Assembly (NCBI GenBank): GCA_027324805.1
Contig: DAHVRZ010000005.1
Coordinates: 1 to 50,077 of the forward strand
From: Candidatus Parcubacteria bacterium
GTDB lineage: Bacteria; Patescibacteriota; Minisyncoccia; UBA6257; 2-01-FULL-56-20
DNA length: 50,077 bases
Reading direction: 5' to 3'
Below, piece by piece: positions 33,868 to 50,077 of this stretch. The position numbers were made by a program, and so were the translations under genes. Under the pieces are notes generated by a model, which searched no databases, was not told the origin of the DNA, and saw only the letters and a list, made by a program, of their open reading frames with translations. Every line of letters begins with the position of its first letter. Position 1 is the stretch's first letter.

Positions 33868-33982
33868 CTCATTCTTCGATTTTTTTGCCTGGCAGTTCTG
33901 ATGAAACGAACTGCGTTCAATGATACGGCATCACGGCTACGAGTCAATAGTATTTTCCGGGGAAGCGTGTTATAATGTCGGA

Positions 33983-34413
33983 GCAGGGCAGAACGGACGA
34001 TCGCTCTTCGGGTGCAAACCAGGGGAGAGGAAAATCCGGACACCCTCCATGGATCGCTTTTGCTTCGGCGGAGCGGTGTATGGACAAAAAGGTACCCGGC
34101 GAAACGCCGGGCGTCCGTAAGGATAGAGGTGCGAGCAGTGACGTCCCGAGGCAAAAGCCGAGGGAGGGCCCGATCCCGACGTAGAAGGCCTAATTCCGCC
34201 ATAGGGACAACAAAGCGGAAGTGAAACGGCAAAATCCTTACCGGGTGCAAGGTCGTGCCTCTCGCCGTGATCCGAAAGGACCGCGTGCAAGGGGAGTGCC
34301 GCATGAGCCTGCGAGCAATCAAAGGCCAAGATGAATGATCGTCCCCGCATTTTGCGAACTGCTTATGCAGAGCGAAGGTGTGGCGACAGAATCCGGTTTA
34401 CAGTCTGCCCTGC
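33983..34413 (+). ncRNA. rnpB: RNase P RNA
   Basis: P1 GCAGGGCAGA/TCTGCCCTGC; CR-I GAGGAAAATCCGGAC (34027); CR-V ACAGAATCCGGTTTA (34386); GTGAAACGGC; GTGCAAG; upstream TGtTATAAT (33968-33976). Confidence 0.93.
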
Positions 34414-34419
34414 AATCCA

Positions 34420-34445
34420 GAACCCGGCGATGAGCCGGGTTTTTG
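34420..34445 (+). terminator. rnpB terminator
   Basis: aacccggc-gatga-gccgggttttt. Confidence 0.85.
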
Positions 34446-34510
34446 ATTGAGAAGCCAACGAATATTCCGCGATTGTTTTTATCTTCTGATGTCGCACCGG
34501 AGTCCGGTAT

Positions 34511-35203
34511 TCACGCCTGGAGGAGTCGCGCCTTTTCCTCCATCTCCTCTTTGATGTCCTCCGAGTAGGGGAGAATACGATTCCTTCCGCGGACGATTGT
34601 TCCATCCGGCAGTTCTCTGTCTTCCTTTGCTATGAAAAGAGCTTCGTCGGCGCGCGCGAATGCCGTTTCTACATCTTCTCCGGGCGTGACGACCGTGTAC
34701 CCGCCGCTAAATGTTATGGGCGTCGGTTCGCCGTCGAGTTCCACCATGAATCCGAGCTTGAGGCGCTCCATAAGGCCTGCGACATCCACCTCCTTAAGAA
34801 GTACGGCAAATTCCTCTCCGCCGTAACGCGCGACGACATCGTCGACGCGGAATTTTTCCCTGACGAGCGACATGAGATGTTCCGCGGCCGCCTTAAGCGC
34901 GCGGTCGCCGCCGACATGGCCTTCCCTGAATGCGTCGTTTACGATCTTGAAGTTATCGAGATCGAGGATCAGGAGCACGTCGGGGTTGCCCTCCGTCGCC
35001 GAGCTGCGTTTTTCGATATCGCCCTTCCGTCGCGCAAATTCTTCATTGAATTTGCGCCGGTTATCGAGTCCCGTAAGTTCATCGGTATAGGCCATTTTCA
35101 TAAGCTCTTCAATTTTCCGGTCACGCTTGTTAATGGCGTCCTTCAGCTCTGCAATCGTTTCTTCCGGAGCGGGGATGTATTCTTGAGGGGGCTGTTCTGT
35201 CAT
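34511..35203 (-). CDS. Diguanylate cyclase (coiled coil + GGDEF domain)
   Basis: AYTDELTGLDNRR, DLDNFKIVND, GHVGGD, ARYGGEEF, ADEALF.AK, GRNR. Confidence 0.92.
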   Translation of the reverse strand: MTEQPPQEYIPAPEETIAELKDAINKRDRKIEELMKMAYTDELTGLDNRRKFNEEFARRKGDIEKRSSATEGNPDVLLILDLDNFKIVNDAFREGHVGGDRALKAAAEHLMSLVREKFRVDDVVARYGGEEFAVLLKEVDVAGLMERLKLGFMVELDGEPTPITFSGGYTVVTPGEDVETAFARADEALFIAKEDRELPDGTIVRGRNRILPYSEDIKEEMEEKARLLQA

Positions 35204-35353
35204 GGTTATGGTGTTTCTCAAATTATGCTATTTTTTTCAGAAAGAGCAACATTCCATTTTTTCCAAGGGAGGAGTATGTTGTGATGACCAAATCGCCGTC
35301 GTTTCAAAAAAGCTACGCACAAGCCCCTATCTGTGATTTGTTATAATGAATGT

Positions 35354-44983: not shown

Positions 44984-45709
44984 TTATCCCTCTTTTTCAA
45001 ATGCCTTCACAATAGGATCAAAATCGCCTTCCATGATTTTTTCGATGTTGTGCCATTTCTTTCCGATGCGGTGGTCGGTGATACGGTCGTCCGGGAAATT
45101 GTAGGTGCGGATCTTTTCCGAGCGATCGCCGGTTCCGATCTGTTCGCGGCGCATGTCGGTGACGTTGCCGGTGGCTCTGATCTGCTCGATCTCATAAAGT
45201 TTGGCGCGGAGAACATCCATCGCCTTTTCGCGGTTCGCATATTGCGAGCGTTCCTCGCGCGATGCGACAACGATACCCGTTGGCTTGTGGAGGATCCGCA
45301 CCGCAGTTTCCACTTTATTGACGTTCTGGCCGCCGGGTCCGCCCGCGCGGGAAAAGGTCACTTCGAGATCGTTGTCCGCGATGCGGACCTCTTTCGCTTC
45401 GACGATCGGAAGGATTGCAACCGATGCGGTCGAGGTGTGGACGCGGCCCGACTTTTCGGTGACCGGGATCCGCTGGACGCGATGCACGCCCGATTCATGT
45501 TTGAACGCATCATAGCATCCTTCGCCCTTCACTTCGGCGACGAGGTGTTTGTAGCCCTGGCCGTTATCATTCGAATCGAGGACGGAAAAGGTCCAGCCCT
45601 GTTTGGCGCAATAACGCTGGTACATGCGTGCAAGATCTCCGGCGAAAATGGATGCTTCGTCGCCGCCGGCACCAGCCCGGATTTCCATGATGATTTTATT
45701 GGTGGTCAT
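44984..45709 (-). CDS. prfA: Peptide chain release factor 1, lacking N-terminal domain 1
   Basis: [25 protein letters not shown] (PxT motif), [22 protein letters not shown]; only 241 aa. Confidence 0.9.
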
Positions 45710-45748: not shown

Positions 45749-45799
45749 AAAAAAAGGGCCTTTGCCGGAGGCCGTGGTTACGGTCGGCAAAGGTCCCTT
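45749..45799 (-). terminator. Terminator of the two-gene island
   Basis: Minus strand AAGGGACCTTTGCCG...CGGCAAAGGCCCTTTTTTT. Confidence 0.8.
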
Positions 45800-46671: not shown

Positions 46672-47994
46672 CTAGGGGGCCTGGCCCCTGGATGTGGACA
46701 CGAGCGCGGCTTGCTGCTGCTGCTGCTGTTCGCCGCGTTCAAGGTCCAGGTTGGCGTTCACGGCCGCATCTTTCGCGGCGTCTTCGTTTGCGGCTACGAC
46801 TTTCTGGTGATGATCGCGCGCAAGGCGGATCAGGGATGTTACCGCGAATGCGCTTGCGCCCCCGATGGGCCCAAGTGCGAAGTAGGCGATGGTTCCGGCT
46901 CCTGCATCCTGCCCGGTCCCAAAAAGGAATTGGGTGAACCGGTGCGACGAAGCCGGGAAGTGCTTGTACACCGGCGTTGCGTGCCGGCGAACATACTCAC
47001 CGGCGACGGGACCGCTTAGTCCTGCGACGGCGAGGTTGAACTCCTGTGAGGGAAGTGGTTTGAGCGGTACATAGAGGACGAACTGTCCTTTTTGAACCTT
47101 CACTTCCGAATTTCCGATTCGGCGCTGGCTTGTGGCGACCCTTTCTTCTGGTTGGAAGAAATAGACGCGTGTTTCCAGTTGCCGATCGATCACCGAGGCC
47201 GTCATTCCCGGAGGAAGTACGACCGCATAGCCTTTCGGCGTACGGTGATCACGGACGGCTGCCTTTCCGGCTGCGGCATGCTGCGGCGCTGCAACGAGAG
47301 TGTTCGTGTCCGATATTGTGGCGTATTCCGCTTTCATCGCAGGCAGGTTGGCCATGGATGTGAGTGGCGGGTCATCAATTTCGGACGTGATCGGCGGCGC
47401 TGCGACAGCGAGCGTCACCGCTGCTGCGGCGGCGGACTGTTTCAGTGCGGTCAGACGGTCCGACATTGGCTGCGTTACCTTGTTTGGTTCGGCGGCCTTC
47501 GAGGGATCTTCTTTCTGCGGAACGGTCTTTGGTGCAGTGTCGCGGGTGGCTGTTGCTGTGCAGGGAACGCACGGAACTTTGCCGCGGGAGTACGGTGGAA
47601 TGTAGATCCACCATCCCGCCTGAACTGTCCGCAGATCCTGCGGAAGGCCCGGGTTGGCGTGCACAATCGGGAACCAGTCTGCGCGCTTGTAGGCGCGAAG
47701 GGCAAGCTCCGAAAGTATGTCGCCCTGCTGAAGCTGATACCAGCCCGGTTCGAATTGGATCGGCGCTTGCTTGTTCGTCTGCGATTTGTTGCTCGCGGGC
47801 GAAGCGTTTCCCGTCTTCACTCCTGCCGTTTTTGCGGCGGGTTTGTTTGGGTGATGATGGGAGGTTGCCCATTTCCAAGGAAAGAATCCGCCAAGCGTTA
47901 CAGCCGCTACGATCAGGGCTGTCGCGATCGGACGAACTGCCTTCCGGAAACTGAGTTCGGAATTCCAGTGATTTTGCAAATGCTCGAATGGCAT
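46672..47994 (-). CDS. Membrane-anchored LysM domain protein
   Basis: N-terminal TM; LysM-like YQLQQGDILSELALRAY....W..I..ANP.L......AG..IYIP; SD AAGGAG upstream. Confidence 0.8.
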   Translation of the reverse strand: MPFEHLQNHWNSELSFRKAVRPIATALIVAAVTLGGFFPWKWATSHHHPNKPAAKTAGVKTGNASPASNKSQTNKQAPIQFEPGWYQLQQGDILSELALRAYKRADWFPIVHANPGLPQDLRTVQAGWWIYIPPYSRGKVPCVPCTATATRDTAPKTVPQKEDPSKAAEPNKVTQPMSDRLTALKQSAAAAAVTLAVAAPPITSEIDDPPLTSMANLPAMKAEYATISDTNTLVAAPQHAAAGKAAVRDHRTPKGYAVVLPPGMTASVIDRQLETRVYFFQPEERVATSQRRIGNSEVKVQKGQFVLYVPLKPLPSQEFNLAVAGLSGPVAGEYVRRHATPVYKHFPASSHRFTQFLFGTGQDAGAGTIAYFALGPIGGASAFAVTSLIRLARDHHQKVVAANEDAAKDAAVNANLDLERGEQQQQQQAALVSTSRGQAP

Positions 47995-48440
47995 TGGCTT
48001 ACTCCTTTCTCCCGGGAGAGCGCCCGGGCAAGTCGTGCGGTTGCGGTTGACCTGCGCCTTGCGGTGCAGGAGAGCTGCGTTGCCGCTGTCATCGGTTCCT
48101 CAAAGCCATCATTATTCCCATCCGATAGGCCGTTCCCATACGTCGGGCAACGGGATCTCGCATGCAGGAATTTCGAATAGCGTCACTCCGTCACTGCGTG
48201 GCCGTGCTGTTCCGTCCCCATGTATCGGGCAACGGTAAGCGGCGGTCTAACGCAATGACGGACGCGAGTCTCCGATACTAGTATCAACGAGCACAATCGT
48301 TCGGAAAGGCATCCTTGGCGGAGACAGAGAGCCGCATCGATCATCCTTCAGAAGGCGACCATAGCGGTTCCTCGTCCTTTATTCCATACCGGTATGAAAT
48401 TGCCAAGGAACCCTCCCAAGTTCATGCGCTCGGGAGGTCT
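47995..48440 (-). ncRNA. Unassigned ~440-nt structured RNA / long 5' leader
   Basis: Multiple helices, most with G-U wobbles on the minus strand; two copies of a 24-nt bulged hairpin; upstream TTTACA-17-TAATAA promoter-like motif. Confidence 0.5.
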
Positions 48441-48509
48441 TATTATTAGCATATTTTTGATATTTTGTAAAGGTATGATCAAGATACCGTCTTCCTTTAT
48501 GAATATACG

Positions 48510-48535
48510 AAAAACCCCGCGATGGCGGGGTTTTT
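48510..48535 (-). terminator. rpmE terminator
   Basis: aaaaaccccgc-gatg-gcggggttttt. Confidence 0.88.
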
Positions 48536-48552
48536 GAAAAGGGACCAATCGA

Positions 48553-48801
48553 TTATTTCGCTTGTTTTTTGGCGCGCACTTTTTTGGGTTTTGTGGGAAC
48601 CGCAGCTGCGCGGCGCGTCTTGAACTTTTCGACGCGGCCCGCCGTGTCGATGAGCTTCTCTTCGCCGGTATAGAACGGGTGGCACTGTGCACAGATTTCG
48701 ACGTGGATCTCCGGTTCGGTTGCGCCAACAACGAACGAATTGCCACACGAACAGGTCACTTTTGCCTGGGAATAGTATGCGGGATGGATTTCCTTTTTCA
48801 T
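48553..48801 (-). CDS. rpmE: 50S ribosomal protein L31 (Zn-binding type)
   Basis: MKKEIHPAY...CSCG...EICAQCHPFYTG...DTAGRVEKF; promoter TTGACG-17-TAGAAT upstream. Confidence 0.97.
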   Translation of the reverse strand: MKKEIHPAYYSQAKVTCSCGNSFVVGATEPEIHVEICAQCHPFYTGEEKLIDTAGRVEKFKTRRAAAVPTKPKKVRAKKQAK

Positions 48802-48933
48802 AACGTTGTCTATTCTATAGTGTCGCCACGTTTTCGTCAAATATCGAATATCCGATCTGCTGCTCGGTTTCTATAAAAAGTCATGAGGCCGCCAAGCATT
48901 GTGCTGGGCGGCCTCGATTGGGGATGGGGGGAT

Positions 48934-49176
48934 TCACCGTCCCTTGATCTTCGTTGTTATTATCGTTGGTCCGATATACCTTGATTTTCTTTCTCCTCGT
49001 CTGAAGATGAGAAATCCGACAAAGATAACAATGAAACCGACCCCCACCTGTTCCATTATCCTGTGGAAGGGGACCACTTCCACCATGCTAACCGTCGTCT
49101 GGTAATCGCTGGTGCCGGCGGCACCTAGGATCGCCAGAATCCCGATACCCATGAGAATACCACCAAGGGTTTTCAT
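48934..49176 (-). CDS. Small hypothetical membrane protein (2 TM)
   Basis: Two hydrophobic helices; SD CAGGAGG; own promoter upstream; downstream hairpin gaggccgcc...ggcggcctc. Confidence 0.65.
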   Translation of the reverse strand: MKTLGGILMGIGILAILGAAGTSDYQTTVSMVEVVPFHRIMEQVGVGFIVIFVGFLIFRRGERKSRYIGPTIITTKIKGR

Positions 49177-49520: not shown

Positions 49521-50077
49521 TTTTCAGAGGATTTGATCCTGGTCCAGGATGAACGCTGGCGGTGTGGATAAGGCATGCAAGTCGAGCGCTTCATATTTTG
49601 AAACTGTTTGCGATTACATCAAGAGCGGCGGATGTTTATGAGGAGCGGCGAACGAGTTAGTAACACCCTGGTACGTACCTCGAAGACGGGCACAGCTCGC
49701 CGAAAGGCGGGGTAATTCCCGATATTCCCGAAAGGGCAAAGTCGCAAGACGCTTCGAGATCGGCCTAGGTCCGATCAGCTAGTTGGTAGGGTAACGGCCT
49801 ACCAAGGCTATGACCGGTAGGGGAGGTGAGAGCCTGGCCCCCAACGACGAGACTGAGACACGGCTCGTACTCCTACGGGAGGCAGCAGTCGAGAATATTC
49901 GACAATGGGCGAAAGCCTGATCGAGCGACACCGCGTGCAGGATGAAGGCCTTCGGGTTGTAAACTGCGGTAGTATGGGAGGAATGTAAATGACTGTACCA
50001 TACGGAAAGAGGTGGGTAACTACGTGCCAGCACCAGCGGTAATACGTAGACCTCAAGCGTTATCCGGATTTATTGGG
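49521..50077 (+). rRNA. rrs: 16S rRNA, 5' part (runs off the window end)
   Basis: TTTGATCCTGG, GAACGCTGGCGG, CATGCAAGTCG, ACTCCTACGGGAGGCAGCAG, GTGCCAGC...GCGGTAATAC, TCCGGATTTATTGGG. Confidence 0.99.

Follow-up and report, generated by a model that had tools for sequence, protein, structure and literature searches.

The 446 nt between positions 47995 and 48440 on the minus strand of the window (the whole 50,077-nt stretch of DNA analysed) appear to constitute a functional cis-acting leader RNA upstream of a LysM-family gene, a reading to which we give a probability of roughly 0.55. The last quarter of this leader has been kept in a distant relative, which suggests that the region is probably a real regulatory element. 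The leader is probably lineage-restricted, belonging to a narrow and poorly sampled bacterial lineage. A novel large cis-regulatory RNA had been proposed at this position by an earlier interpretation made without database searches (the sequence-only reading), and part of that proposal stands: the region is non-coding as far as can be told, it has no Rfam match, it extends from a promoter-like site up to the LysM gene, and a relative shares its last ~100 nt. The claim for the full length of the RNA goes further than the conservation, which has been seen for 48092-47996 only.

Locus and flanking signals

The features of the locus are listed in Table 1. The gene for ribosomal protein L31, rpmE, is followed by a terminator hairpin, to which Rfam models also align with their terminator parts, and this terminator is the upstream limit of the LysM unit. 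Beyond it lies a sigma-70-like promoter that can by eye be read in another register as well (TTTACA-17-TAATAA, with a TG one base upstream). This is one of two promoter-like sites in 47800-48950, where shuffled sequences have 0.6 +/- 0.9, and transcription from it is predicted to start at about 48440-48436. Across the ~440 nt that follow, a scan of 47800-48950 showed neither another promoter-like site nor any terminator-like one on the minus strand. The leader ends at the ATG at 47994, which is the first in-frame start of the 440-aa open reading frame and is kept as the start codon in all four family members. From the order of rpmE terminator, promoter-like site, Shine-Dalgarno (SD) sequence and open reading frame it follows that 47995-48440 occupies the place of a 5' leader to a predicted two-gene operon. 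The promoter and terminator are consensus matches only. The second gene starts 12 nt past the first. The sequence-only reading had spoken of a 'LysM island', and this was an overstatement, as the unit comprises two genes (440 and 277 aa) and is closed at 45773-45757.

Table 1. Features at the leader and its two-gene unit, in order of transcription; leader, domains, hairpins and flanking signals are predicted elements
Feature	Position	Strand	Remarks
rpmE (L31)	ends 48553	-	Pfam Ribosomal_L31, E 4.6e-29
rpmE terminator hairpin	48510..48535	-	perfect inverted repeat of 11 bp, A/T runs on either side
Sigma-70-like promoter TTTACA-18-AATAAT	48442..48471	-	10/12 consensus matches
Leader RNA as a whole, ~440 nt	47995..48440	-	MFE and z in the text; Rfam and coding searches negative
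Domain 1	48288..48437	-	two mutually exclusive folds
Domain 2	48187..48262	-	13-bp helix around twin hairpin A
Twin hairpin A	48235-48212	-	loop GAUACAU
Domain 3	48105..48181	-	nested short helices around twin hairpin B
Twin hairpin B	48153-48130	-	loop GACGUAU
Domain 4, conserved block	47995..48092	-	back-translated P0004 extension aligns here
Upstream AUG	48092	-	in domain 4
GCAA-capped hairpin	48070-48051	-	in domain 4
C/A-rich single-stranded repeat	~48050-48037	-	in domain 4
CCCGGG hairpin	48028-48023 with 48016-48011	-	in domain 4, just before the SD
SD AAGGAG	48007-48002	-	read in the sequence; 7 nt before the start
First gene, 440 aa	46672..47994	-	divergent LysM; predicted model
Second gene, 277 aa	45826..46659	-	signal-peptide-like N-terminus, Ser-rich tail
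Terminator-like hairpin, then T run	45757..45773	-	closes the two-gene unit

Very short leaders are seen on other genes of the window. The neighbouring rpmE itself appears nearly leaderless: its promoter-like TTGACG-17-TAGAAT ends at 48812 and its ATG is at 48801, with no SD sequence between them (48801-48840, minus strand). The ATG lies ~10 nt past its -10 box, in contrast with the adjoining 440-nt leader.

Folding strength

Long G+C-rich intergenic regions are the usual place to hunt for structured RNAs, as set out in three papers (PMC6429828, PMC8632094, PMC11109978). Between hand-picked genes there are 17 gaps of 100 nt or more, and the one that contains the leader (47995-48552) exceeds all the others in length. 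It also has the most negative folding score of the 17 (z -5.19, with 40 shuffles for each gap) and, at 0.57, a G+C unsurpassed among them. The 446 nt of the sense strand have a minimum free energy (MFE) of -182.7 kcal/mol, compared with -157.8 +/- 6.3 for dinucleotide shuffles (z -3.94), and none of the 100 shuffles was equally stable. The antisense (plus) strand gives z -3.04. G-U pairs make up 20 of the 147 pairs in the minus-strand MFE structure and 12 of the 143 in that of the plus strand, an excess that supports the strand argument of the sequence-only reading. The leader ranks only 21st of 446, with a residual of -1.8 sd, when MFE is regressed on G+C over all 446 half-overlapping 446-nt windows that tile both strands of the 50 kb. 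It is surpassed by the strand antisense to the LysM gene, on which the segment 47277-47722 (+) is the best of the 446. All five helices that had been named earlier were recovered on the minus strand at their expected positions. However, 39 of 500 dinucleotide shuffles contain an unbroken helix of 13 bp or more, and the 12 helices of at least 8 bp in the leader compare with 10.5 +/- 3.2 in shuffles. Single helices are therefore at chance level and a list of helices proves little. Taken as a whole the thermodynamic signal of the leader is moderate.

Two observations on composition can be added. The sense strand of 47995-48440 has 16 copies of the trinucleotide GGA and the antisense strand nine, a rough expectation from composition being ~9; this could hint at a CsrA-like binder. 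On the plus strand an open frame of 362 codons (47092-48180) runs antisense to the LysM gene and reaches into the leader; it has no gene support and probably reflects strand composition.

Domains and twin hairpins

The predicted structure can be divided into four domains. The two folds of domain 1 share a 3' arm and exclude each other: one is a 5'-terminal hairpin in which 48437-48429 pair with 48420-48412, and the other a long irregular stem in which 48419-48402 pair with 48319-48301. The 5' hairpin is retained when the span of pairing is limited to 130 nt, whereas the global fold favours the long stem, with helices at P>=0.9. The pairing of UCCUUGGC with GCCAAGGA (48409-48402 with 48319-48312) is predicted at P>=0.91, and the 13-bp helix of domain 2 (48262-48250 with 48199-48187) at P>=0.90.

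Domains 2 and 3 each carry at their tip one of a pair of similar hairpins that were absent from the sequence-only reading. These twin hairpins, A and B, are 24 nt each, lie 82 nt apart and are identical at 20 of 24 bases. The best direct repeat in 500 shuffles matched at 18 of 24 and none of the 500 reached 20. The differences between the two are confined to the three middle bases of the loop and one change from U-G to U-A, by which the pair is preserved. Read by eye, loop A offers an AUAC and loop B a complementary GUAU. Outside these hairpins the likeness between domains 2 and 3 is weak, and a duplication of the whole domain was rejected for this reason. These two are the only copies in the 50-kb window. 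In 185,579 species genomes the hairpin pattern was found at 11 loci where we estimate that ~9 would be expected. Every one of them stands alone in an open frame, with frame lengths of 106 to 1121 codons (ten of them at least 236); the loci come from 11 unrelated taxa, and blastn finds in them no likeness to the leader beyond the pattern itself; they were rejected as chance occurrences. The many copies that would mark a dispersed repeat (REP- or MITE-like) were thus found neither in the 50-kb window nor in the 185,579 species genomes.

Searches for known RNA families, coding content and copies

The sequence-only reading had predicted that Rfam would return nothing for the leader, and no family reached its gathering score there; at the gathering threshold the whole window contains 16S rRNA only. 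None of the families of Rfam 15, including c-di-GMP-I/II, ydaO, T-box, cobalamin and the large ncRNAs, was found in the leader at gathering score, and none attained even half of it: the strongest matches within the leader at E<=10 scored 17.8 and 13.2 bits, where the gathering scores are 70 and 41.2 respectively. Domains 2-3 searched by themselves gave no Rfam match at E<=10, and no tRNA or tmRNA was found in the leader. A link to c-di-GMP had also been suggested. It has no support: its sole basis is a GGDEF gene (34511-35221) some 13 kb distant, and no c-di-GMP family was matched.

The leader is non-coding as far as can be told from such searches. None of its 12 stop-to-stop frames has a Pfam match at E<=1, and none of seven leader open reading frames was present in a collection of 15 billion proteins by exact look-up. 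The longest frame on the minus strand (89 aa) had eight candidate homologues, none at E<=1. In its distant mode blastn found no match to the leader in 72,556 plasmid and 50,697 phage records. There are no other copies or target-like matches of it in the window and no terminal repeats around it. A transcription attenuator was sought on the minus strand of 47800-48950, and no G+C-rich hairpin followed by a U run was found. The literature, which could not be searched by lineage name, yielded no description of this leader.

Conservation of the last ~100 nt

Evidence for selection on the leader came with the comparison of LysM proteins related to that encoded in the window. In the cluster of P0004, the proteins P0004 and P0007 (506 aa) correspond to P0006 and P0008 (444 aa) with 33 further N-terminal residues, while P0002, P0003, P0006 and P0008 start at a Met aligned with the start of the window protein. 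The relative with the extension is 42% identical to the window protein, and its BLASTP alignment runs on into the frame upstream of the ATG, with ALLHRKAQ in the window and AALHRKVQ in P0004. The 33 residues of the extension were back-translated to codon sets and then aligned to the DNA, so that what follows is a comparison with one relative and with a degenerate sequence. The back-translated extension fits 48092-47996, ending two bases before the ATG, with a score of 34 against -8.8 +/- 5.9 for shuffled residues (0 of 300 shuffles reach 34). When 304 chunks covering the whole window on both strands were scanned, this site scored 32, the next best 11 and the mean was -12 +/- 7.6. At positions fixed by the codon, 43 of 54 bases are identical. 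The leader block scores like conserved protein domains (31.5 to 66.5), and two coding blocks just past the start score -10.5 and -3. An ungapped codon comparison is weaker, with 59 of 102 against 50.4 +/- 4.0 and 110 of 5000 shuffles as good. The alignment contains single-base gaps that shift the frame, and the ACCGCAACCGCA repeat is read in different frames in the window and in the P0004 lineage. The constraint thus acts on the nucleotides and not on a peptide. The best reading of these data is that the last quarter of the leader is under purifying selection, while the extension could be a real N-terminal tail in the P0004 lineage. N-terminal family fragments that might carry more translated leader were also sought, and none of 53 candidates was found at E<=0.01.

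In the same kind of alignment P0004 residues 166-198, a linker rich in His, Asp and Ala, scored 18 on the leader at 48050-48139 (minus strand) and not on its own gene. We take this to be a composition artefact; since this linker is unrelated to the leader, scores near 18 are possible by chance in such alignments.

The relative can also be used to judge the predicted pairs of domain 4. None of the seven pairs of the GCAA hairpin is contradicted (two certain, four possible and one gapped), and read from the alignment the loop remains GNAA and the single A.C mismatch of the window becomes A-U. In the CCCGGG hairpin one pair is certain, four are possible and one is impossible in that alignment, although shifting the register by two bases might permit six. 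Over the 30 pairs of domain 4 nine are certain, 13 possible, seven contradicted and one gapped. Among those contradicted are two of three pairs predicted to cover the SD (48031-48006 and 48030-48007). In the window sequence the predicted probability of being unpaired is 0.05 to 0.76 across the SD and below 0.02 for the AUG, consistent with partial masking, but because pairs covering the SD are contradicted this predicted masking of SD and AUG has no comparative support and an output mechanism built upon it is weakly founded. A conserved hairpin covering the AUG was also considered; by eye it fits P0004 and P0002 in part and P0003 not at all, and it was dropped.

The downstream genes

In its AlphaFold model the protein encoded by the first gene begins with a membrane helix at the N-terminus; a divergent LysM domain, a disordered linker and a beta-rich domain follow, with a long helix at the C-terminus. 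The mean pLDDT of this model is 68.7, with residues 81-135, ~250-345 and the terminal helices being confidently predicted. A search of the PDB with the model gave no match at E<=0.001, and the weaker likenesses were limited to Ig-like sandwiches and to parts of baseplate proteins that resemble LysM. The LysM domain of the window protein itself falls below the Pfam cut-off of 20.9 bits, which is exceeded by three of 14 family members scanned (P0016 with 24.1 bits, P0021 with 31.4 and P0024 with 30.1). A profile search with the family found 234 proteins at E<=0.001, a few of them full-length relatives; in the others the similarity is confined to the LysM portion or to the C-terminal one. Among 5.8 billion proteins only three other 90% clusters were found, with 42-53% identity. 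In 185,579 species genomes a query built from a four-sequence alignment gave 91 pattern matches, none of which was confirmed as a relative. The Protein Atlas lists LysM clusters for the protein at 0.76 only, below its level for more than a lead. The protein encoded by the second gene matched no Pfam family; as a probably secreted, Ser-rich protein it would form a cell-envelope operon together with the LysM membrane protein. As the first gene encodes an envelope protein of unassigned activity, it gives no hint of the signal to which the leader might respond.

Nearest known systems

The nearest described RNAs are those found upstream of cell-wall genes. The lysM-TM7, lysM-Actino, lysM-Prevotella and M23 motifs are described as orphan motifs with no known ligand (PMC5737381). 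The three lysM motifs are likewise candidate cis-regulatory RNAs in the 5' UTR of LysM-domain genes and, like the leader, each is limited to one lineage with its effector unidentified (PMC5737381). The leader shares their location, in that it ends at the ATG of a gene assigned to the LysM family in Pfam through remote homologues. It was not matched at E<=10 by any lysM family of the Rfam library, in which we presume these models to be present. The M23 motif (RF03006), from the same paper (PMC5737381), was present in the library searched and is also found upstream of genes for cell-wall enzymes. Its 3' hairpin and purine-rich tail align weakly to the CCCGGG hairpin and AGAAAGG of the leader, with 22 central positions of the model replaced by 51 nt. 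Membership of this family was rejected, the score of 13.2 bits (E 3.5) being at chance level against a gathering score of 41.2.

Three other classes invite comparison. The ydaO/yuaA c-di-AMP riboswitch is a large leader with pseudo-two-fold symmetry that often precedes cell-wall or LysM-type genes. It gave no match to the leader at E<=10, and the symmetry of the leader is limited to two 24-nt hairpins. In the guanidine-II (mini-ykkC) RNAs and the targets of ANTAR antiterminators, two similar small hairpins act jointly. The leader differs from both in having loops of 7 nt in place of ACGR tetraloops or hexaloops, and in that its hairpins are 82 nt apart, each within its own domain and with no overlapping terminator. 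Finally, 5'-terminal stabilisers such as that of ompA consist of a stable hairpin a few bases from the 5' end of a long leader. An element of this type would account for the first ~30 nt of our leader only, and the position of that 5' end is itself a prediction.

Possible mechanism

The scheme that we propose has four parts, and as a whole it is possible but more doubtful than probable. Transcription would begin at the sigma-70-like promoter, at about 48440-48436, and the hairpin at the extreme 5' end may, by analogy, shield the mRNA from decay that depends on the 5' end. The twin hairpins presented by domains 2 and 3 would then form a two-part platform for an effector, for which a dimeric RNA-binding protein is favoured; alternatively the two loops might dock on each other through AUAC and GUAU. 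Domain 4, with its GNRA-capped hairpin, C/A-rich single strand, second hairpin and SD, would be the output module and would set the ease with which ribosomes start at the SD and AUG. Since there is no terminator inside the leader, control is expected at the level of translation or mRNA stability and not by intrinsic termination. Two elements of the scheme are observed, namely that the leader lacks a terminator and that domain 4 is conserved; the other steps we infer. It is unlikely that the leader is the founding case of a new class of multi-domain sensor RNA of ~440 nt, an orphan riboswitch-like element from an uncultured lineage and outside current families. In that event the twin hairpins would dock mutually or on one effector and so gate translation of the LysM operon.

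If the leader is indeed a regulatory RNA, it belongs with the structured leaders that recur before LysM and other cell-wall genes, where several lineages each have their own motif and the signals are unidentified. As an unusually large example from a poorly sampled lineage it could serve as a test case for sensing before envelope remodelling, and the twin hairpins and the conserved output module provide clear experimental handles.

Alternative explanations

The main rival to a cis-acting leader RNA is a mostly idle long UTR, of which only the last ~100 nt would be functional as a ribosome-binding region, standby site or translation enhancer; the remainder would be spacer, with a fold and a repeat arising from local duplication and high G+C. 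The system would then be an ordinary one, a long UTR with a conserved ribosome-loading region. This would agree with conservation that is limited to 48092-47996, with single helices at chance level and a GC-corrected rank of 21 of 446, and with a hairpin pattern that has no real copy elsewhere (11 loci for ~9 expected). It sits less well with a z of -3.94 that none of 100 shuffles equals, with the G-U strand bias and a G+C of 0.57 that tops the 17 gaps, with differences between the twin hairpins that spare the stem, and with the very short leaders of other genes here such as rpmE. On balance we consider an idle UTR rather improbable. A riboswitch for a small molecule or second messenger, with the twin hairpins as parts of a tandem or pseudo-symmetric aptamer, would be in keeping with a large, G+C-rich, multi-domain leader upstream of a LysM gene. 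The internal duplication is reminiscent of such aptamers, and c-di-AMP is the classical signal for cell-wall genes. However, no Rfam family reaches half its gathering score inside the leader, there is neither an intrinsic terminator nor a convincing SD-sequestering helix that is kept in the relative, and with one known lineage there is no core of conserved nucleotides to be recognised. The orphan lysM and M23 motifs share the position of the leader and a relation to c-di-AMP has been proposed for them, but they failed to bind c-di-AMP in the hands of the same authors, as reported in that paper (PMC5737381). A riboswitch is therefore unlikely.

The remaining explanations are less probable still. 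Control by an upstream open reading frame, or production of a small protein, would involve the frame that opens at AUG 48092, whose translation would govern initiation downstream; this frame has 59 codons and overlaps the LysM start by 82 nt. It has an SD-like GAGGA 5 nt upstream of its AUG, and the extension in the relative opens with an AUG aligned to 48092 as well. Yet in the relative this AUG shares the reading frame of the LysM gene and in the window it does not, from which it follows that no peptide is conserved, and a comparison of the window with P0004 accordingly found none. The 89-aa frame has no homologue (none of eight candidates at E<=1), no Pfam match was found and the protein collection lacks the open reading frame. 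Control by an upstream open reading frame, or a small protein, is very unlikely. Little more can be said for an independent or processed trans-acting ncRNA that merely happens to lie upstream of the LysM gene. Its size and domain structure would be like those of large ncRNAs, and the long stem of domain 1 could provide a site for RNase III. The minus strand has no terminator-like site before the gene, though, the conserved block abuts the SD, and neither another copy or target-like match in the window nor an Rfam match was found, so that we give such an RNA only a slight chance. A decayed coding sequence or mobile-element remnant is also unlikely, and to a still greater degree. The P0004 extension could mean that the ancestral start lay further upstream, but P0002, P0003, P0006 and P0008 start at the same Met as the window protein, none of 12 frames has a Pfam match, no plasmid or phage record was matched by blastn, and terminal repeats and other copies are lacking. 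A functional cis-acting leader, with its last quarter conserved, is thus the reading that we prefer.

Other observations in the window

Several further features of the window were noted. Upstream of the leader, both strands of 48838-49283 fold far above the expectation from G+C, ranking second and fourth of the 446 windows. An open reading frame for a membrane-like protein of 80 aa (48934-49176, minus strand) that is present in the protein collection lies here, and near it a G+C-rich hairpin at ~48886-48916 that looks like its terminator. Further along, 49521-50077 (plus strand) is the 5' part of a 16S rRNA according to Rfam. Around the site of the '515' primer it reads by eye GTGCCAGCACCAGCGG, to be set against what we take to be the usual universal sequence, and its first variable region presumably is long in comparison with the usual one.

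The second-longest gap (33976-34510) has 535 nt and a G+C of 0.57, with folding z scores of -3.6 (plus strand) and -2.8 (minus strand). Two convergent genes flank this gap, which is on the downstream side of the GGDEF gene and is overlapped by minus-strand open reading frames of 126 and 152 aa; it may hold an unrecognised gene.

The release-factor gene at 44984-45709 (minus strand) encodes 241 aa only. Its product matches Pfam PCRF from profile position 100 of 194 and RF-1 in full, and the partial PCRF match suggests a release factor without the N-terminal domain. The 116-nt gap upstream is too small for the missing domain. This short form has been kept elsewhere: its 90% cluster has eight members of 241-256 aa from several sources, two of which are named 'peptide chain release factor 1'.
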